Below are positions 5,351 through 63,172 of a stretch of DNA of 64,000 bases, piece by piece; positions within the stretch are counted from its first letter, which is position 1; each line of letters starts with the position of its first letter. Origin of the DNA: Mobula hypostoma (taxonomy: Eukaryota); NCBI RefSeq assembly GCF_963921235.1, contig NC_086097.1:122328001-122392000 (forward strand), given 5' to 3'. A program made the translations under genes and the position numbers. The notes under the pieces are model-generated. The model was given only the letters and a program-made list of their open reading frames with translations. It was not told the DNA's origin and did no database searches.

Positions 5351-5417
5351 GCAAAATTGTCTCCGCAATGTCGAGGGATAACTCATTCTGGTTAAGGATC
5401 CATTGAATGCATTACTG

Positions 5418-5873
5418 GCCAGGCAGTATCTATGGAAAAAAGTACAATCGAGATTTCAGGTCAAAACCCTTTGGCAGGACTAGAGAGAAAAAGCTAAGGA
5501 ATAGATTTGAAAGGTGGGGGGAGGGGAGAGAGAAATGCAAAGTGATAGGTGAAACCGGGAGGGGGAGGGATGAAGTAAAGACCTGGGAAGATGATTGGTG
5601 AAAGAGACAGAAGGCCATAGAAGAAAGAAAAAGGGGGAGGAGCACCAGAAGGAGGTGATAGATGAGCAAGGAGATAAGGTAAGAGAGGGAAAAGGGGATG
5701 GGATATGGTGAAGGGTGGTGAGAATGGGGGGCATTACTGGAAGTTGGAGAAATCGATATTCAAGCCATCAGGTTGGAGGCTACCCAGATGGAATGTAAGT
5801 TGTTGTTCCTTCAACCTAACTGTGGCCTCATCACGACAGACGAACTTCCAGCATCTGCAGATTTTCTTGTTTG
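5418..5873 (-). mobile_element. Penelope-like element insertion: ORF end, terminal repeat and inverted tail piece
   Basis: 14-bp TSD TGAATGCATTACTG at 5404-5417 and 5874-5887; GIY-YIG C-terminus; decayed hammerhead ~5440-5481; plus-strand tail 5843-5873. Confidence 0.85.
5734..5838 (-). pseudogene. C-terminus of Penelope GIY-YIG endonuclease
   Basis: Own translation CRDEATVRLKEQQLTFHLGSLQPDGLNIDFSNFQ*, matching the E..L...L.(S/T)..P.GLN ending of PLE endonucleases. Confidence 0.8.
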
Positions 5874-13624: not shown

Positions 13625-13907
13625 GACCACCCTATACAGCGGGCAGCTGTCGGAGCGGGCAGCGGAGTGAGCAGTAGCAGAGTGTAGGGCTTTGGCTTCA
13701 ACGGGCTTCGGCGACAAACAGGAAGAGGCAAGAGCGAAGCGCCAACTTTTTTTCTCTCCCCCGCCCCCACCTCTTTCGCGAATCGGCCCGGACAGACAGG
13801 AACAGCAGGGCTCTCACAGCTAACGGTTTAAGAAGTTTGTCTGTTTGGCGAGGTAAGTGGGTGAGTAGACTTATTTTTCCTGTTTCATTCGTGTAGAATT
13901 AGATAGC

Positions 13908-14843
13908 ATGCCTGCAGGGTTAGTGCTTTGTTCAGGGTGTCAGATGTGGGAACCCTGGGAGACCTCCAGCCTCCCTGATGGCCACATCTGCGCCAGGTGC
14001 ACCGAGTTGCAGCTCCTCAGGGACCGTGTTAGGGATCTGCAGCTGCAGCTTGATGACCTACTGCTTATCAGGGAAAGTGAGGAGGTGATAGACAGGAGCT
14101 ACAGGGAAGTAGTCATCCCTAGGCTACAGGAGTCAGAACATTGGGTCACTGTCAAGAGAGGGAAGGGAAATGCCCGGATAGTGGAGAGCACCCCTGTGGC
14201 TGTCCCCCTCAGCAACAAATATCTTGTTCTGGATGCTGTTGAGGGGGATGACCTGACGCGGGATGCCCACGGTGACCGGGTCTCTGGCACTGAGCCTGGC
14301 GCTGTTGTGCAGGAGAGAAAGAGGGAGAAGAGAAATGCGGTAGTCATAGGGGATTCCATAGTCAGGGGAACAGACAGGAGATTCTGTGAGCCTGACAGAG
14401 ATACCCGCATAGTGTGTTGCCTCCCAGGTGCCAGGGTACGGGATGTCTCGGATCGGGTCCTGAATATTCTAAAGGGGGAGGGTGAGCAGCCAGTTGTCTT
14501 GGTACATGTTGGTACCAATGACATAGATAGGACAAAGGAGGAGGTCCTGAAGAGAGATTTCCAGGAGTTAGGAAGGAAGCTGAGAAGCAGGACCTCCAGG
14601 GTAGTAATCTCGGGATTGCTACCTGTGCCACGTGCTAGCGAGGGCAAGAGTAGTTGGATCAGGCAGATGAATGCGTGGCTGAGAGACTGGTGTAGGGGGC
14701 AGGGCTTCAGATTCTTCGATAATTGGGATCTCTTCTGGGGGAAGTATGACCTGTTCAAAAAGGACAGGTTACACCTGAACCCAAAGGGGACCAATATCCT
14801 GGCGAGAAAGTTTAATAGAGCTGTTAGGGAGGGTTTAAACTAA
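13908..14843 (+). CDS. CR1 ORF1p: CxxC..CxxC zinc finger, leucine-zipper coiled coil, SGNH/GDSL esterase
   Basis: 311 aa with ATG start; CSGC..CARC; LQLLRDRVRDLQLQLDDL; VIGDSIVRG, VHVGTND, DRLH. Confidence 0.92.
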   Translation: MPAGLVLCSGCQMWEPWETSSLPDGHICARCTELQLLRDRVRDLQLQLDDLLLIRESEEVIDRSYREVVIPRLQESEHWVTVKRGKGNARIVESTPVAVPLSNKYLVLDAVEGDDLTRDAHGDRVSGTEPGAVVQERKREKRNAVVIGDSIVRGTDRRFCEPDRDTRIVCCLPGARVRDVSDRVLNILKGEGEQPVVLVHVGTNDIDRTKEEVLKRDFQELGRKLRSRTSRVVISGLLPVPRASEGKSSWIRQMNAWLRDWCRGQGFRFFDNWDLFWGKYDLFKKDRLHLNPKGTNILARKFNRAVREGLN

Positions 14844-15021
14844 TTTGGCAGGGGGTTGGGAACCAGAATGATAGAGCGGAGGAAGGGGAAAACAGAAATA
14901 AATCTAAGATAGTGAGCAGTAAAGATGTCAGGAAAGACAGGCAGGTGATGGGGCAAATGTGTAGCCATTGGGATGAGTTGCAGTGAAATCAAAGCAAAAA
15001 GTATGAAATACTGGTCTTAAG

Positions 15022-17787
15022 GTGTTGTACTTAAATGCACGCAGCGTAAGGAATAAGGTGGATGATCTTGTTGTACAGCTACAGATTGGCAGGTATGATA
15101 TTGTGGCCATCACTGAGACCTGGCTAAAGGATGCATGTCTCTGGGAGCTGAAAGTCCAAGGATACACGGTGTATCGGAAGGATAGGAAGGTAGTCAGAGG
15201 GGGAGGCGTGGCTTTATTGGTAAGAAATGATATTAAATCATTAGAAAGAGGTGATATAGGATCGGAAGGTGCAGGATCTTTATGGGTTGAGCTAAGGAAT
15301 AGCAGGGGTAAAAGGACTCTGATGGCAGTTATTTATAGGCCTCCAAACAGCTGCGGGGATGTGGACTACAAATTACAACTGGAAATAGAAAAGGCTTGTC
15401 AGAAGGGCAGTGTTATGATAATTGTGGGGGATTTTAACATGCGAGTAGATTGGAAAAATCAGGTCGGCACTGGATCTCAAGAGAGAGAATTTGTAGAATG
15501 TCTGCGAGATGGCTTTTTAGAACAGCTTATTGAGCCCACTAGGGGATCGGCTGTACTGGATTGGGTATTGTGTAATGAACCGGAGGTGATTGGAGAGATT
15601 GAGGTGAAGGAACCCTTAGGAGGCAGTGATCATAACATGATTGAGTTCACTGTGAAATTTGAAAAAGAGAAGCCGAAATCTGACGTGTCGGTATTTCAAT
15701 GGAGTAAAGGAAATTACAGTGGCATGAGAGAGGAACTGGCCAAAGTTGACCGGAAAGAGACACTGGTGGGAAAGACAGCAGAGCAGCAGTGGCTGGAGTT
15801 TATGCGAGAAATGAGGAATGTGCAAGACAGGTATATTCCAAAAAAGAAGAAATTTTCGAGTGGAAAAAGGATGCAACCGTGGTTGACAAGAGAAGTCAAA
15901 GCCAAAGTTAAAGCTAAGGAGAGGGCATACAAGGAAGCAAAAATTAGTGGGAAGACAGAGCATTGGGAAGTCTTTAAAACCTTACAAGAGGAAACCAAGA
16001 AGGTCATTAAGAGAGAAAAGATTAACTATGAAAGGAAACTAGCAAATAATATCAAAGAGGATACTAAAAGCTTTTTCAAGTATATAAAGAGTAAAAGACA
16101 GGTGAGAGTTGATATAGGACCGATAGAAAATGATACTGGAGAAATTGTAATGGGCGATGAGGAGATGGCAGAGGAACTGAACAAGTATTTTGCATCAGTC
16201 TTCACTGAGGAAGACAGCAGGATACCGGCCACTCAAGGGTGGCAGGGAAGAGAAGTGTGCGCAATCACAATTACAAAAGAGAAAGTACTCAGGAAGCTGA
16301 ATAGGCTAAAGGTCAATAAATCTCCTGGACCAGATGGAATGCACCCTCGTGTTCTGAAGGAAGTAGCTGTGGAGATTGCGGAGGCATTAGCGATGATCTT
16401 TCAAAAGTCGATAGATTCTGGCATGGTTCAGGAAGACTGGAAGATTGCAAATGTCACTCCGCTATTTAAGAAGGGGGCAAGGAAGCAAAAAGGAAATTAT
16501 AGACCTGTTAGCTTGACGTCGGTGGTTGGGAAGATGTTGGAGTCGATTGTCAAGGATGAGGTTACAGGGTACCTGGAGGCATATGACAAGATAGGCAGAA
16601 CTCAGCATGGATTCCTTAAAGGAAAATCCTGCCTTACAAACCTATTACAATTTTTTGAGGAAATTACAAGTAGGCTAGACAAGGGAGATGCAGTGGATGT
16701 TGTATATTTGGATTTTCAGAAGGCCTTTGACAAGGTGCCACACATGAGGCTGCTTAACAAGATAAGAGCCCATGGAATTACAGGAAAGTTACATACGTGG
16801 ATAGAGCGTTGGCTGATTGGCAGGAAACAGAGAGTGGGAATAAAGGGATCCTATTCCGGTTGGCTGCCGGTTACCAGTGGTGTTCCACAGGGATCAGTGT
16901 TGGGGCCGCTTCTTCTTACATTGTACATCAACGATTTGGATAATGGAATAGATGGCTTTGTGGCTAAGTTTGCTGATGATACGAAGATAGGTGGAGGGGC
17001 CGGTAGTGCTGAGGAAACAGAGAGTCTGCAGAGAGACTTGGATAGATTGGAAGAATGGGCAGAGAAGTGGCAAACGAAGTACAACATTGGAAAGTGTATG
17101 GTCATGCACTTTGGCAGAAAAAATAAACGGGCAGACTATTATTTAAATGGGGAAAGAATTCAAAGTTCTGAGATGCAACGGAACTTGAGAGTCCTCATAC
17201 AGGATTCCCTTAAAGTTAACCTCCAGGTTGAGTTGGTAGTGAAGAAGGCGAATGCAATGTTGGCATTCATTTCTAGAGGAATGGAGTATAGGAGCAGGGA
17301 TGTGATGTTGAGGCTCTATAAGGCGCTGGTGAGACCTCACTTGGAGTACTGTGGGCAGTTTTGGTCTCCTTATTTAAGAAAGGATGTGCTGACGTTGGAG
17401 AAGGTACACAGAAGATTCACTAGAATGATTCCGGGAATGAGAGGGTTAACATATGAGGAACGTTTGTCCGCTCTTGGACTGTATTCCTTGGAGTTTAGAA
17501 GAATGAGGGGAGACCTCATAGAAACATTTTGAATGTTAAAAGGCATGGACAGAGTGGATGTGGCAAAGTTGTTTCCCATGATGGGGGAGTCTAGTACGAA
17601 AGGGCGCCCTTTCAGAACAGAAATGCGAAAAAAAATTTTTAGTCAGAGGGTGGTGAATCTATGGAATTTGTTGCCATGGGCAGCAGTGGAGGCTAAGTCA
17701 TTGGGTGTCTTTAAGGCAGAGATTGATAGGTATCTGAGTAGCCAGGGCATCAAAGGTTATGGTGAGAAGGCGGGGCAGTGGGACTAA
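15022..17787 (+). pseudogene. CR1 ORF2p: AP endonuclease and reverse transcriptase, with one premature stop
   Basis: APE motifs NARS, ETW, YRPP, GDFN, SDH; RT motifs YLDFQKAFD, GVPQGSVLGP, KFADD; TGA at 17530-17532 with the same frame continuing to 17787. Confidence 0.95.
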
Positions 17788-33535: not shown

Positions 33536-35119
33536 CATGTGGCCCCCATTTTCCGAACGTTCGCTTTGCAACACCTCGCTGTAACGAAAGACCTACATTA
33601 GGTACCTGTTTTCGCTAACAGAAGGTATTTTCACTGTTACGAAAAAAGGCAGCACACGCCCAAACAGCCAAGCTCCTGCCCCGGAACGCATTCTAGCCGC
33701 AGCAGCTGCCATTGCTTAAACACGTGCTTTATCTCGATTTATTTTGTGCATCCGTTAGCAAGATGAGTTCTAAGGTATCGGAAAAGCCTAAAAGAGCTCA
33801 TAAGGGTGTTACACTTAGCATAAAACTAGACATAATTAAGCGTTTCGATCGTGGTGAACGAAGTAAGGACATTGTCCACGCGTTGAACTTGCCTGCGTCC
33901 ACCATTCGCACTATTTATACGCAGAGAGAAATGGCGTTTGGTTATTCGTATAAGCAAATGTTTAACTGTGACGAAACTGCAATTTATTAGAAAAAGTTGC
34001 TGAGCAATACATTTATTTTGATAGAAGAAAAGCAGGCTAAGGGACACAAGGCATCGAAGGACAGGTTTACCCTAATGCCTATTATTAACGCCACTGGTGA
34101 TTCTGTCCTTAAGCCTCTACTGGTGTACCATTCAGAAAATCCGAGGGCACTTAAAGGCGTTGATAAGAAAACACTTCCCGTTGTGTTCCTTTCACATCCA
34201 AGTGGTTGGAATACCCAAGTGTTCTTTTCTGAGTACATGAGTGGATACGTTAGTCCTTTTGTTGAAAAATACTGTAGAGAAAATAACCTCGATAATAGGT
34301 GTTTTGTGATTGTCAATAATTGTGCTGCTCGACCACCTGGCATTACCAAGTATGGCGGTAACATTCGTGCTGCGTTCTTATCGCCGAATACGACATCGTT
34401 GCTGCAGCCGTGCAACCAAGTTCGAACAGCCACAATTAAGACTTACTATATGCAAAACGTGATGCGTTTTATTGTAAGTACCATTGACAGAGAGGGCAAC
34501 TCCGAAGCGTCTTTGCGAGAGATCTGGAAAGATTACAATATAAAATTGGCAATCGCCAACATTGGAGATGCTCTCGATAGGCTAACAGTCTCAATGAGAA
34601 ATGGCATTTGGAGGAAACCGTGTCGCAAAGCAGTGAACGATTTTAAAGGCTTCAAACCATCAACAATAAATATGGCAATAGTGAATTTGGCTGCTGTACA
34701 TACATTATTTCTACTTTATATAGGATGTGCATTTTTATGCATTATTTGGTATGATTTGTTATTTGGTATGATCTAGCAGCTTCATAGCTTAAAGGTTACT
34801 GGAGAAAGTGTTTCTGCCAAGAGCACTTGCGCCGAGAGTGCTGCCGTGAGATTTTCGCGGCACTAGACAGTGCTGAAAAGTATTTCTACTTTATATAGGC
34901 TGCGTATTTATCACATCATTCCTGCTTTTACTATATGTTACTGTTATTTTAGGTTTTATGTGTTATTTGGCACGATTTTGTAGGGTATTTTTTGGGTCTG
35001 GGAACACACAAAAATTTTTCCCATATTAATAAATGGTAATTCCTTATACACTTTACGACATTCTGGCTCACTATCTGTTTCATAGGAATGCTCTACCTTC
35101 GGATAGCAGGGGAAACCTG
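33536..35119 (+). mobile_element. Tigger/pogo DNA transposon, internally deleted, nested in a V-SINE
   Basis: TA TSDs (33534-35, 35120-21); TIRs CATGTGGCCCCCATTTTCCGAA / TTCGGATAGCAGGGGAAACCTG. Confidence 0.88.
33763..34776 (+). pseudogene. Tigger (TIGD1-like) transposase: psq-type HTH fused to the DDE_1 domain
   Basis: VTLSIKLDIIKRFDRGE..PASTIRTI; FNCDET; KASKDRFTLM..NATGD..KPLLVYHSENPRALK; PNTTSLLQP; single TAG at 33988-33990. Confidence 0.9.
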
Positions 35120-35735
35120 TATATCTTTGGAATGTGTGGAGAGACTGGAGCACCTGGAGAAAACCCACATGATCACAGGGAGAACGTGCAAACTCCTTAC
35201 AGACAGCGACTGGAATTGAACCCCGATTAGTGATCACTGGCCCTATAAGGCATTATGCCAACCGCTTTGCTACCGTGCCCCTCAGTAATTAACCTCATGG
35301 TTGATAGGTTCTTGATTAGTAAGGGTGGCAAAAGGCAAGAGAATGGGGTTGAAAGGGACACTAAATCAGCCACGATCGAATTGTGGAGCAGACTCAATGA
35401 GCCGAGTAGCCGAATTCTGCTCATATGTCTTATGGTCTTCCAGTCCATCCTCATTATTACTCTATAATAGGAATCCATTAACATACATGAGTCCAACTCA
35501 AGGCTTAATAAAGGTAGTTTTATTTAGACTTCTTGTCATCTCTTGGTCGTATATGCAAATTGTGATCTTATGCCCTCCATTAAAAACCCACATCAATGAT
35601 CATTTGAAAAGAATGATGATTTTAACACAGTCCCTGGGGAGGACACAACATTTCTTTCATCAATTAACCACTTCTAGTTCCCACCTGCCCTGCAGTAAAA
35701 CATGAAAACATGCCACAATCCCGTTAATATCTAAT

Positions 35736-35737
<2 letters not shown>

Positions 35738-35777
<40 letters not shown>

Positions 35778-36106
35778 GGTGGGTGGATGTGTGTGTGTGT
35801 GTTTGTGTGTGTGTGGGGGTGTGTGTGGGGGGGTGGGTATGTGTGTGTGAGGGAGTGTGTGGGAGTGGGTATGTGGGTGGGTGGATGTGTGTGTGTGGGG
35901 GTGGGTATGTGTGTGTGAGGAGGTGTGTGGGAGTGGGTATGTGGGTGGGTGGATGTGTGTGTGTTTGTGTGTGTGGGGGTGGGTATGTGTGTGTGAGGGG
36001 GTGTGTGGGAGTGGGTATGTGGGTGGGTGGATGTGTGTGTGTGTGTGTGGGGGGTTGGGTATGTGTGTGTGAGGGGGTGTGTGGGAGTGGGTATGTGGGT
36101 GGGTGG

Positions 36107-36149
<43 letters not shown>

Positions 36150-36419
36150 GAGGGGGGTGGGTATGTGTGTGTGGGAGGGTGTGTGGGAGTGGGTATGTGG
36201 GTGGGTGGATGTGTGTGTGTCTGTGTGTCTGTGTGTTTTGTGTGTGTGTGTGGGGGTGGGTATGTGTGTGTGGGAGGGTGTGTGGGAGCGGGTATGTGGG
36301 TGGGTGGATGTGTGTGTGTGTGTGTGTGTGCGGGGGTGGGTATGTATGTGTGGGGGGGTGTGTGGGAGTGGGTATGTGGGTGGGTGGATGTGTGTGTGAG
36401 TGGGTATGTGGGTGGGTGG

Positions 36420-36487: not shown

Positions 36488-36631
36488 CTTTTCTTTCAAA
36501 CAATGTATTAGAAGCTGCTTTTGTTATCGTTTATCTTTAACTGACACAACTGGGTACAGTCAATCAGTGGACACAAAACTGCAAGGATTATGCAATATTG
36601 TAAAAGCCAGGAAATTAGGACAGTAAAACAT

Positions 36632-37070
36632 AAACACAAAAGATTCTGCAGATGCTGGAAAATATGTGCACCACACACAAAATGCTGAATGAACTCAGCA
36701 GGTCAGTTAGCATCTATAGAAAGAAATAAAAAGTCAATGTTTCAGGCCAAGACCCTTCATCTGGACAGGAAAGGAAGGAGGAAGAAGCGAGAATTAAAAG
36801 GTGGGGGGGGGGAGGGTACAAGCTGGTTGATGATAGATGAAGCCATCCGAGGGGAAAGGTAGGTGGGTTGGGGAGGGGGGATGATGTGAGAAGGTAGCAG
36901 GTGATAGGTGGAAAGGGGAAAGTGCAGAAGAAAAAAGAATCTGATAGGAGAGGAGAGTGGACCATGGGAGATAGGGAAGGAGGAGAGGCACCACAGGAAA
37001 GTGACGGGTAGGTAAGGAGAAGAGAAGAGGTAAGAGGGGAACCAGAATGGTGAACAGAGAAGGACAGAAA
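36632..37070 (-). mobile_element. Penelope-like terminal repeat with mutated hammerhead (36731-36768)
   Basis: Minus strand TGTC-CAGATGA-AGGGTCTTGGCCT-GAAA-CATT-GACT; purine-rich body. Confidence 0.8.
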
Positions 37071-37249
37071 GGGACAAGAGATCAGGTATGTCCAGATGCA
37101 ACTGAGGGTCCATTAAAATAATAATAGTATATTCCTTTGAGAAAGCTTAACTTCAAATTATGACTTTATCATAGTGGCTGTGGAACAACCTGTAGTGCAC
37201 AGAATGAACTGTGATAAAGGACTACTGCATTGCTTTCCAGAATAACAGT

Positions 37250-37810
37250 CAAAATGCTGGAGGAACTCAGCAGGCCAGGCAGCATCTAAAAAGAGGAATA
37301 AACAGTCAACATTTCGGGCCGAGGCCCTTCATCCGGACTGGAGAGGAAGGGGCAAGGAGTCAGGAAAAGATTATTTATTATTAATCTTTATTGTTCTATT
37401 TGGTTATCCTTTGTTGGTCTCTAAGACTGTCCTAATTCTTCTCCTCCCCTCTTACCCCTCCTCTTCACATCGTCTGCCTGTCACTTCCCTCTGGTGTCCC
37501 TCCTCCTTCCCTTTCTCTCATGGTCCACTCTCCTCTCCTATCAGATTCCTCCTTCAGCCCTTTACCTCTTTCACCTATCACCTCCCAGCTTCTTGCTTGA
37601 TCCACTGTCCCCCACCCACCTACTTTCCCCCTCATCTGGTCTCACCTATTACCTGGCAGCAGGTACCTCTTCTCCTCCGCCCACCACTCTATTTTGGCTT
37701 CTTCCCCTTCCTTTCCAGTCCAGATGAAGGGTCTCAGACCGAAATGTCGATTATTATTCCCCTCCATAGATGCTGACTGACCTGTTGAGTTCTTCCAGCA
37801 TTTTATGTTT
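37250..37810. mobile_element. Two Penelope-like terminal repeats in inverted orientation
   Basis: Hammerhead-like motifs at 37303-37340 (-) and 37716-37753 (+). Confidence 0.8.
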
Positions 37811-38296
37811 TGCACAATATTGCCCCGTACCTCCCAGCCTGTATACAAAGTCCTTTTTGTTTAAACATTTTACTTGCATCACTTACTCCAATGCTGTACT
37901 ACCTTGCATTCTGTATTAACTTTAAAAGTCCTGATGCTACTGCTCTTTTGTTCTCTCTGATCTTATTAATCAACGTCGCCCTAAAACCATGTGGCACAAG
38001 CCAGATAAGCTTTGACTTCTCCGCAAAACAAATCAGATCTATTATCAGCACATCAGCATCCATCAGAAACAAAGTTTCATGAAACACATGGTACAAACTG
38101 ACAGGGTTGACCAAACTACTTTATAATGAAACATCTCCAGTACACAGTATGTGAGCTGTGCACAAGGAATTTAATAGGCTATTAATACCTAATATGAATG
38201 TGTTGAGTAAACCCAGGGAGAATAAATGCAATGATATCAACCATGCCTCTTATGGTGATTGGATCCAGAGCTAACAATTAGCCAAAGTCTGCGCAA

Positions 38297-38472
38297 TACA
38301 CACAAAAACGCTAGAGAAATTCAGCAGATCAGGCAACATCTATGGAAGGAAATGAACAGTTGACATTTTGGACCGAGACCCAATCTTAACAAAGGGTCTC
38401 GGCTCGAAATGTCAAATGTTCATTTCCTTCCATGGATGTCGCCTGGCTTACCGGGTTCCTCCAAAACTTTGT
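38297..38472. mobile_element. Penelope-like fold-back remnant
   Basis: ATGGAAGGAAATGAACA..GAGACCC / GGGTCTC..TGTTCATTTCCTTCCAT. Confidence 0.75.
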
Positions 38473-40864: not shown

Positions 40865-41573
40865 ATATGTCATTGAGTCATAGAGCATGGAAACTGGCCC
40901 ATTCACCCACAGAGTACCATTGACCTTCAACCACCTAGTTACACTACTCTTGCATTAACACTTTTTATTGCATTAACACTTTTTATTCTCTTCAAGTTCC
41001 CTCAGATTCTACCAACCACCTATGTACACAGGAAATTTACAGGGTCCAGTTAAAAACTACATGTCATTGGGGTGAGGGGGGAAACCAGAGTACCCAGGGG
41101 AACTCCACTTATTGCAGGTTAAACGTACAAACCCGACACAGAAATATTCCAAGGTCAGGATTGAATCTAGGGTAATTCAAGATCCTATAGATGCTGCTTG
41201 GCCTGCTGCGTTCACCAGCAACTTTGATGTGTGTTGCTTCAATATTAAAGGTTGTTTATTGTCATTCATCAGTACATAAATTTAAATGAGAACGAGAACA
41301 AATGTAACTCCTACAATTACAAATAATTGGTAGTGTGAGGCAGAGGGTCTACCAGCTATACTATTGTGCTGTCTGTCCTACACTCTAAAATGAAATTAAC
41401 TGACGGGATAACTTTAAGAATCAAATCTGATTTATTATATGTCATGAAATTTGTTGTTCTTTTGGCAGCAGTACAGTGAAATACATAAAATATACTCCGA
41501 ATTATAATTAGAAATATATTAAAAACTAAATAGTGCAAAAAGAAAGCAAAATAGGATTCATTGGATCATTTAA

Positions 41574-41712
41574 ACGCAAACAACAGGAATTCTGCAGATG
41601 CTGGAAATTCAAGCAACATACATCAAAGTTGCTGGTGAACGCAGCAGGCCAAGCAGCATCTGTAGGAAGAGGTGCAGTCGACGTTTCAGGCCGAGACCCT
41701 TCGTCAGGACTA
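41574..41712 (-). mobile_element. Young Penelope-like terminal repeat, 5'-truncated at the hammerhead
   Basis: Nearly identical to 62579-62678 and 62698-62820; inserted in a Rex/Babar tail. Confidence 0.85.
41675..41712 (-). ncRNA. Minimal type-I hammerhead ribozyme motif (intact core)
   Basis: UAGUC-CUGACGA-AGG(GUCUCGG)CCU-GAAA-C-GUC^GACUG. Confidence 0.75.
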
Positions 41713-62448: not shown

Positions 62449-62578
62449 AAGACTAATTTAAAATTCAGACAATCTTTGCATAGAAATTTCCTTCATGTAA
62501 CATACAGTCCAAATTATGTTGACGTGTCTCAGTGCTCAGAACTCTTATTCATTAGTCCAACAATCTAACAATCTTTTA

Positions 62579-62820
62579 GCAACATACATCAAAGTTGCTG
62601 GTGAACGCAGCAGGCCAGGCAGCATCTATAGGAAGAGGCGCAGTCGACGTTTCAGGCCGAGACCCTTCGTCAGGACTAACTGAAGGAAGAGTTTTCTTCT
62701 CGGCCTGAAACATCGACTGCGCCTCTTCCTATAGATGCTGCCTGGCCTGCTGCGTTCACCAGCAACTTTGATGTATGTTGCTTGAATTTCCAGCATCTGC
62801 AGAATTCCTGTTGTTTGCGT
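62579..62820. mobile_element. Young Penelope-like fold-back insertion
   Basis: 84-bp inverted arms 62579-62662 / 62698-62781 with one mismatch; TSD AACAATCTTTTA at 62567-62578 and 62821-62832. Confidence 0.9.
62641..62678 (-). ncRNA. Minimal type-I hammerhead ribozyme motif (intact core)
   Basis: Identical 38-mer to 41675-41712. Confidence 0.75.
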
Positions 62821-63172
62821 AACAATCTTTTAATCTGGATTTGTTAAACAGTGTTTGGAGTGGAGCATGATATAGAATAATTAATCTATTTATACTGTGG
62901 TAAAAGCTCTCTAGTAATAATATGACAAGGGTTGAGGAATTGAAGAATAGGGTACAATAAGAATTTAATGCAGAAGAAAGTAATTATAATTTTTCCACAT
63001 TTTGTAGAGATACAGCAGGGTAACAGGTCCTTCTAGCTAAACAAGCCTGTACTGTTCCATCACATCCATGCAACCAATTAAACTACCAATCCTTACTTTT
63101 GTGGAATGCAGGAGGAAACCAGAGCACCTGGAGGAAACTCACATGGTCACTGGGAGAATTTACAAACTCCTA

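Follow-up and report, generated by a model that had tools for sequence, protein, structure and literature searches.

Minimal type-I hammerhead ribozymes have been described in metazoan Penelope-like elements (PLE), among them the Xena, Poseidon and Neptune elements of fishes (PMC4209133). They have a U-rich 5' flank, a 5-bp helix I, a CUGANGA box followed by an extra base, a G10.1 that opens helix II, and a GAAA-C-G-U-C segment in which the palindrome carries no loop 3. They are present in both pLTRs of an element, and most copies are solitary, with some pairs on opposite strands. As monomers, the published minimal motifs show no activity, and as tandem dimers or trimers their activity is weak (PMC4209133); dimer cleavage has been reported for tandem constructs (PMC4209133; reviewed in PMC6765202). 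About 4,000 motifs were reported in coelacanth and about 9,000 in Xenopus tropicalis, and no cartilaginous fish was found in the searched part of that study's supplement. The EN+ elements of the Neptune clade (PMC8557442) have a single ORF with RT plus GIY-YIG at the C terminus, with a CXXC between the motifs of the latter, and are defined by a CX2-5CXXC zinc-finger-like linker between RT and EN. They are found as partial tandems and as inverted 5'-truncated copies with a 30-40-bp tail.

In Anolis carolinensis, the Poseidon element PAc (Frangieh et al. 2024, PMC11167929) carries its hammerhead where pLTR and ORF meet, has two 3' ends that fall within the first codons, and inserts from uncut RNA. 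Its motif cut only with protein, was dispensable for insertion and left no read ends. Animal non-LTR retrozymes also carry type-I hammerheads, for which a PLE origin has been proposed, and they too reach very high copy numbers, up to 120,000 in axolotl (PMC7229834; bioRxiv 10.64898/2026.07.22.740005).

Here, we analyzed a 64-kb stretch of the Mobula hypostoma genome (the window), in which a sequence-only reading had recognized a minimal hammerhead. The motif is real, was correctly recognized, and belongs to an already known kind of element. Although the motif, its Penelope pLTR home and the dimer idea are already published, this genome adds scale and uniformity: it holds many more intact cores than the numbers reported for coelacanth and X. 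tropicalis, and the Mobula family is very uniform in sequence. The motif shares the sequence features and placement of PLE hammerheads listed above, including solitary copies and opposite-strand pairs, but its helix II is short (4 bp), with a G.U instead of a G-C at 10.1-11.1 in the youngest subfamily. The surrounding element has the same ORF architecture and types of copies as Neptune-clade elements. It resembles PAc in the position of the hammerhead, in its two 3' ends and, probably, in inserting from uncut RNA. PAc belongs to another clade, however, and its ORF starts inside the ribozyme, whereas here an in-frame AUG lies 60 nt past the cut. In addition, the helix I peak of 5' ends described below is not known from PAc. 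Retrozymes are short non-coding tandem repeats in which every unit has a hammerhead, mostly of the canonical type; the Mobula copies, by contrast, derive from the ends of a coding element and are truncated and dispersed.

Results

Direct sequence comparison showed that the two identical 38-mers announced by the sequence-only reading lie on the minus strand, at the positions given in Table 1. Their layout is that of a minimal type-I hammerhead, consisting of a 5-bp helix I, CUGACGA, helix II, GAAA and a loop-less ACGU palindrome. The core elements CUGANGA, GAAA and UH are all present in type-I order, and helix I closes. The original description holds for helix I, the core boxes, the palindrome and the GUC triplet, but the proposed helix II register (AGG/CCU) was off by one base, an unpaired A followed by a GGGU/GCCU stem being preferred. 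In fold predictions of the isolated 38-mer, the revised pairs have probabilities of 0.87-0.97, versus 0.02 in the earlier register, and the revised closing pair is found in 83/95 family copies, versus 48/95. Pair probabilities and family-wide counts together rule out the earlier register. The extra base between 9 and 10.1 is present, and 10.1-11.1 is a G.U in both window copies, as in some rows of the published alignment (PMC4209133 supplement); C11.1 is found in 8/32 young copies and in most older subfamilies. The 15.2-16.2 palindrome (ACGU) has no loop 3, and C-G-U-C is shared with many rows of that alignment.

Table 1. Hammerhead, element copies and element map; positions are those of the window unless marked as unit positions
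Feature	Position	Strand	Remarks
Minimal type-I hammerhead motif	62641..62678	-	fits PMC4209133 supplement consensus
Helix I 5' strand	62678-62674	-	5-bp helix
CUGACGA box	62673-62667	-	
Unpaired A	62666	-	revised helix II register
Helix II	62665-62654	-	4 bp, CUCG loop
GAAA box	62653-62650	-	
ACGU palindrome	62650-62647	-	loop-less
Predicted cut, after GUC	between 62646 and 62645	-	
Helix I 3' strand	62645-62641	-	
Second, identical hammerhead motif	41675..41712	-	predicted cut between 41680 and 41679
5'-truncated pLTR stump	62578..62692	-	unit 280-394, short 3' end; 100% identical to full-length unit in L043
Inverted arm, same insertion	62698..62820	+	unit 310-432, long 3' end with ~40-nt tail
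Target-site duplication, copy 1	62567..62578	.	12 bp; last base shared with element end
Target-site duplication, copy 2	62821..62832	.	12 bp
Solo stump	41568..41712	-	unit 294-438, 97.9% to L043; helix I to tail
Young 61-bp fragment	41183..41243	+	unit 339-399, downstream of cut site, without hammerhead
Older relative	5415..5838	-	last 34 GIY-YIG codons (76% aa identity), then pLTR with decayed core
Five older pLTR fragments	36629..38471	.	36629-36806 (-), 37218-37356 (-), 37698-37815 (+), 38286-38381 (-), 38380-38471 (+); all cores broken or missing
Unit map (unit positions)	294-331; 326; 387		hammerhead; cut after 326; in-frame AUG

These two motifs are the only CUGANGA...GAAA sites with a helix II of at least 2 bp in the 64 kb. 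The 38-mer has an ordinary fold stability (z -1.24, with 22 of 200 shuffles equally good), and a loose descriptor gave 3 matches in the window versus a mean of 0.87 in 60 Markov resamples, which is weak evidence alone. Rfam scans, a check suggested by the sequence-only reading, returned no hammerhead family up to E 5 or E 10, probably because the motif has no helix III, which these models expect. A sequence search against the PDB yielded no meaningful match. It is the copy number of the family, rather than the fold, Rfam or the loose descriptor, that makes a chance origin unlikely. The genome (3.48 Gb) contains 29,805 exact copies of the 38-mer and, using a tight core pattern, 78,971 intact cores versus 93 for a reversed control, i.e. 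a density of ∼23 per Mb. The genome is therefore seeded with tens of thousands of copies of the motif, as had been proposed. With a profile search, the window yielded 16 pieces of the family, of which 4 are young and 12 older; 704 kb of unselected DNA yielded 153. The earlier estimate for the window of about ten family copies was thus too low, whereas its two whole cores stand.

Loci around exact copies continue upstream into GIY-YIG and RT reading frames, and a protein search of the genome gave 73 scored matches with 97-100% identity, many with long open frames. The element unit is 3,515 bp long and consists of the hammerhead, 60 nt, an AUG, a 1,042-aa RT-linker-GIY-YIG ORF and the next pLTR. 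The ORF carries YIDD, a CX4CXXC linker (residues 909-917) and VIY-CXXC-YIG. Its Pfam matches, RVT_1 (E 3.8e-5) and GIY-YIG (E 1e-3), are both below the curated cut-offs, and it has 525 homologues with RT/GIY-YIG domains, the best of which (71% identity) is named from bamboo shark. We examined 16 full-length loci, chosen because of their long open frames. Each of the 16 is a partial tandem in which two intact cores of the same sense are spaced by one unit, and 14 have all motifs in one frame. The element is therefore an autonomous EN+ Penelope-like element with a single ORF, RT and C-terminal GIY-YIG, and hammerheads inside its pLTRs. This direct linkage of the hammerhead to an RT and GIY-YIG ORF bears out the earlier assignment to a young Penelope-type element. 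The linker and the motifs, rather than a tree, point to membership of the Neptune clade.

Visual inspection of the unit revealed several additional features. In the young family, an upstream frame of 16 codons begins at an AUG that lies 20 nt past the cut (L043:893-945; window 62580-62626); in older subfamilies, this AUG seems by eye to share the frame of the main ORF. GUG replaces the in-frame AUG in many young copies, which makes that AUG a putative start of the ORF. A pyrimidine tract, a branch-point-like word and tandem AGs lie just before helix I (L043:820-843; window 62679-62692), and a second pyrimidine tract with an AG lies just after the hammerhead. Both tracts are candidate splice acceptors that could possibly affect host genes. 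Another locus (L026:2295-5284) is a complex insertion. Its inverted frame of 745 aa has a ∼99-nt segment in triplicate, which ends by a jump to tail sequence, and stands back to back with a sense 3' half.

The hammerhead copies in the window are 115-145-bp stumps. At 62.6 kb, two arms of one insertion, joined through 5 nt, pair over 85 nt at 99%. The inverted arm has no CUGANGA box and a G-to-A change in the palindrome. The inverted 5'-truncated type of copy with a 30-40-bp tail at one end is therefore present at window 62578-62820. The solo stump has a possible 6-bp target duplication. Retrozyme-type tandem arrays were considered and rejected, the window copies being single or inverted, and only 4/100 cores having a same-sense partner within 1 kb. 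Debris of LINEs and DNA transposons surrounds the copies. There is a CR1-like LINE (window 13869-17532) with an esterase-like 324-aa ORF1 and an 841-aa open stretch of ORF2. A 261-aa remnant that resembles a Tigger/pogo DDE transposase lies at window 33991-34776, and a long degenerate (GT)n-rich array with 8-14-nt units lies at window 35650-36300.

Next, we analyzed how the motif decays, using the 103 of the 153 pieces from unselected DNA that cover the motif and its 3' flank. Core and flank accumulate non-CpG changes alike, with 3/314 versus 6/700 in 32 young copies (p 1.0), and 27/272 versus 52/694 in the 29 older copies of the largest old cluster (p 0.24). Core and palindrome are whole in 23/32 young copies and in 29/103 overall. 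A different picture emerged when we compared the majority sequences of five related clusters (32, 29, 7, 5 and 4 copies), in which variable columns amount to 2/11 in the core, 12/13 in the adjoining spacer and 6/27 in a downstream block. One of the two core changes is real (CUGCYGA in an older subfamily), whereas the other comes from the noisy 5-member cluster. The core being kept across subfamilies and decaying neutrally after insertion, the motif was evidently kept in master elements and is unmaintained in inserted copies. The sequence-only reading had looked to subfamilies for preferential conservation of the core and covariation in helix I. The former is seen, since the core is kept better than the adjoining spacer; the latter is not, since among the five majorities no helix shows two-sided covariation, all changes being one-sided (wobble/Watson-Crick) or in the loop. 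The CUGCYGA (A6C) subfamily has 148 exact matches of one 34-letter pattern, and it is linked to endonuclease fragments with ∼75% identity (G000, L227-L238; window 5415-5519), so variant-core elements spread as well. A6C is a natural, still active hammerhead variant (PMC7151607).

The ends of copies may record how they were made. The 3' ends form two peaks ∼40 nt apart, at unit 386-402 in 27/56 copies and at unit 421-439 in 25/56. These ends match the tail described in PMC8557442 and PMC11167929, and in the Anolis element such a two-end signature corresponds to two internal RT start sites (PMC11167929). For 5' ends, we used the first 100 listed of 14,046 copies in which the upstream match is broken by unit 276-277, a sample in which some inversions are represented by both of their arms and two loci are duplicates. 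Among the 100, 38 start at helix I (unit 293-298) versus 8.8 expected (p 2e-15), with a mode at G296, whereas only 3 start at the cut site (unit 326-328), which equals expectation (p 0.8). This make-up of the sample and inversion junctions with microhomology in the helices inflate the helix I peak somewhat. Still, direct repeats of at least 7 bp are found at both ends of 12 of 21 hand-picked non-inverted peak copies, indicating that these are whole insertions. Genome-wide pattern counts gave 1,797 starts at G296; the cut site had 112, and two control offsets had 54 and 89, these patterns differing in anchor and pass rate. By eye, 24/100 listed cut-site matches are helix I inversions and 27/100 are one-base insertions, and ∼31/89 in the larger control set are indels. 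We therefore rejected an accumulation of 5' ends there, any excess being ∼two-fold at most after rough hand normalization. Among 34 young pieces from unselected DNA, 7 have their start at 293-301 and 15 reach above 270; no start falls at 326-328. In the A6C subfamily, 5/12 loci start at the same place in helix I. Inversion junctions often use complementary stretches of helix I and helix II as microhomology (L137-L226), which suggests fold-back priming of cDNA there. Among the openly accessible papers found on shark and ray Penelope hammerheads and on truncation or start sites, none describes this family or a helix I peak of 5' ends, although the family may be among those of the one chondrichthyan genome in bioRxiv 10.64898/2026.07.22.740005.

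What produces the helix I peak can be explained in different ways. It might mark a processing or template-switch site, or splicing of a host exon into the acceptor-like sequence, instead of a transcription start. The pyrimidine tract and tandem AG dinucleotides that precede helix I fit this explanation, as do the many inversion junctions that use the same bases as the peak, and an intron of D. virilis Penelope ends at helix I (PMC4209133). We nevertheless find it doubtful, because target duplications flank the peak copies directly and no exon, shared or additional, precedes them, no spliced joint was among the joints listed, and a stall at a hairpin would be expected 3' of the hairpin, not after it. 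The target duplications specifically rule out splicing to a shared upstream exon.

A second alternative, the cut-and-circularize model of Cervera and De la Pena, holds that the two hammerheads of a tandem transcript free a unit-length RNA, which upon ligation forms a circle that re-creates the motif and serves as template for more-than-unit copies. All 16 full-length loci, with two intact cores one unit apart, fit this model, and the core is kept across subfamilies that differ in 12/13 columns of the adjoining spacer. But a circle has no 5' end and cannot explain a start peak 30 nt upstream of the cut, the cut site has no clear pile-up of 5' ends, and hammerhead mutants of the Anolis element did not affect insertion in vitro (PMC11167929). 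As a general account, it is therefore unlikely; it can coexist, for long copies only, with the uncut-RNA reading that we prefer.

The peak also raises the question whether the motif persists chiefly because of a non-catalytic function, such as an internal promoter or a binding site for the element's protein, and no longer cuts. The sequence of helix I, on which the peak falls, fits the initiator consensus. An internal promoter is located in this part of the D. virilis Penelope (PMC2377424), the older subfamily spread with its CUGCYGA core, and the downstream block is about as conserved as the core. On the other hand, the differences between subfamilies within the 38-mer are at N7, in the loop, at CpG sites or wobble-to-Watson-Crick swaps, as expected if the fold matters. 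Moreover, A6C remains active (PMC7151607) and the Anolis motif did cut with protein (PMC11167929). We thus consider a mainly non-catalytic role, with cutting lost, quite improbable.

Finally, we addressed the claim that copies embedded in host transcripts could cleave as intermolecular dimers. In equilibrium predictions for protein-free RNA, the hammerhead helices have a probability ≤0.01 in 271-nt contexts at both window sites and in the native pLTR. In read-through RNA at 62.6 kb, a predicted 85-bp hairpin buries most of the motif. An intermolecular ACGU helix III is worth only about -1.7 kcal/mol. We looked for partners within 4 kb of the first 100 intact cores of contig C1: 64 cores had none, 27 had an inverted one standing back to back, and 6 had one in the same sense. 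No host exon was found in the window, where 137 ORFs of at least 52 aa from unmasked stretches gave 2 weak matches below the cut-off; the window could still lie in an intron.

These results bear on the possibility that copies in host transcripts pair via ACGU with each other or with element RNA, and cut host RNA. With 78,971 near-identical intact cores, there are many potential partners, and tandem constructs do cleave as dimers (PMC6765202). Against this, the ACGU duplex is weak, the hammerhead helices are predicted hardly to form in their native flanks, nearby partners are mostly inverted, activity is low even in cis dimers (PMC4209133), the core is under no selection, for or against, after insertion, and the window has no detected host exon. 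The claim of dimer cleavage in host transcripts is thus unsupported by the predicted helices, the hairpin, the decay of the core or the exon search. Trans dimers of this kind are very improbable, and stranded stumps are unlikely to cut host RNA. We hold it to be just as improbable that element RNA, with its protein as chaperone, finds sense copies in host pre-mRNAs by pairing in trans and cleaves these transcripts, a process that would amount to genome-wide transposon-driven RNA cleavage.

Discussion

Taken together, these findings are probably best explained by a minimal hammerhead in the pLTR of a young Neptune-type element, the stumps in the window having likely been copied from uncut RNA and being likely inactive passengers. 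Transcription would likely start at the A or G of the helix I 5' strand, a sequence that fits the initiator consensus, YYANWYY. In D. virilis, Penelope has an internal promoter in the corresponding region (PMC2377424). Reverse transcription would begin at the two tail sites, as it does in vitro for the Anolis element, and run off the 5' end of the RNA, which would generate 100-145-bp stumps with a whole hammerhead. Longer copies would arise from tandem transcripts primed at their downstream tail. Cutting by the ribozyme, if it occurs, is likely weak and limited to tandem transcripts of the element, which offer two ACGU palindromes for pairing, and the protein of the element probably helps cleavage. 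Most insertions would need no cutting, which is consistent with unprocessed RNA being the main template of the Anolis element in vitro (PMC11167929). Two points count against this explanation: 15/34 young pieces in the unbiased sample extend well upstream of the peak, and re-ligated circles would also yield intact motifs. The start site, and any cleavage, are read from DNA and should be taken as predictions.

A more specific version, which we put forward tentatively and would rate slightly below even, is that element RNA starts on the first helix of its own ribozyme. Cutting would then remove a leader of ∼31 nt, and stumps would be copied only from uncut RNA. From this start-at-ribozyme reading, the positions of capped and cyclic-phosphate RNA ends can be predicted precisely. 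If true, cutting of host RNA in trans would matter much more, but nothing here supports it. The ends of copies provide a natural readout of the function of Penelope hammerheads. In Mobula, these ends point to uncut templates begun at the ribozyme, in agreement with one in vitro study.
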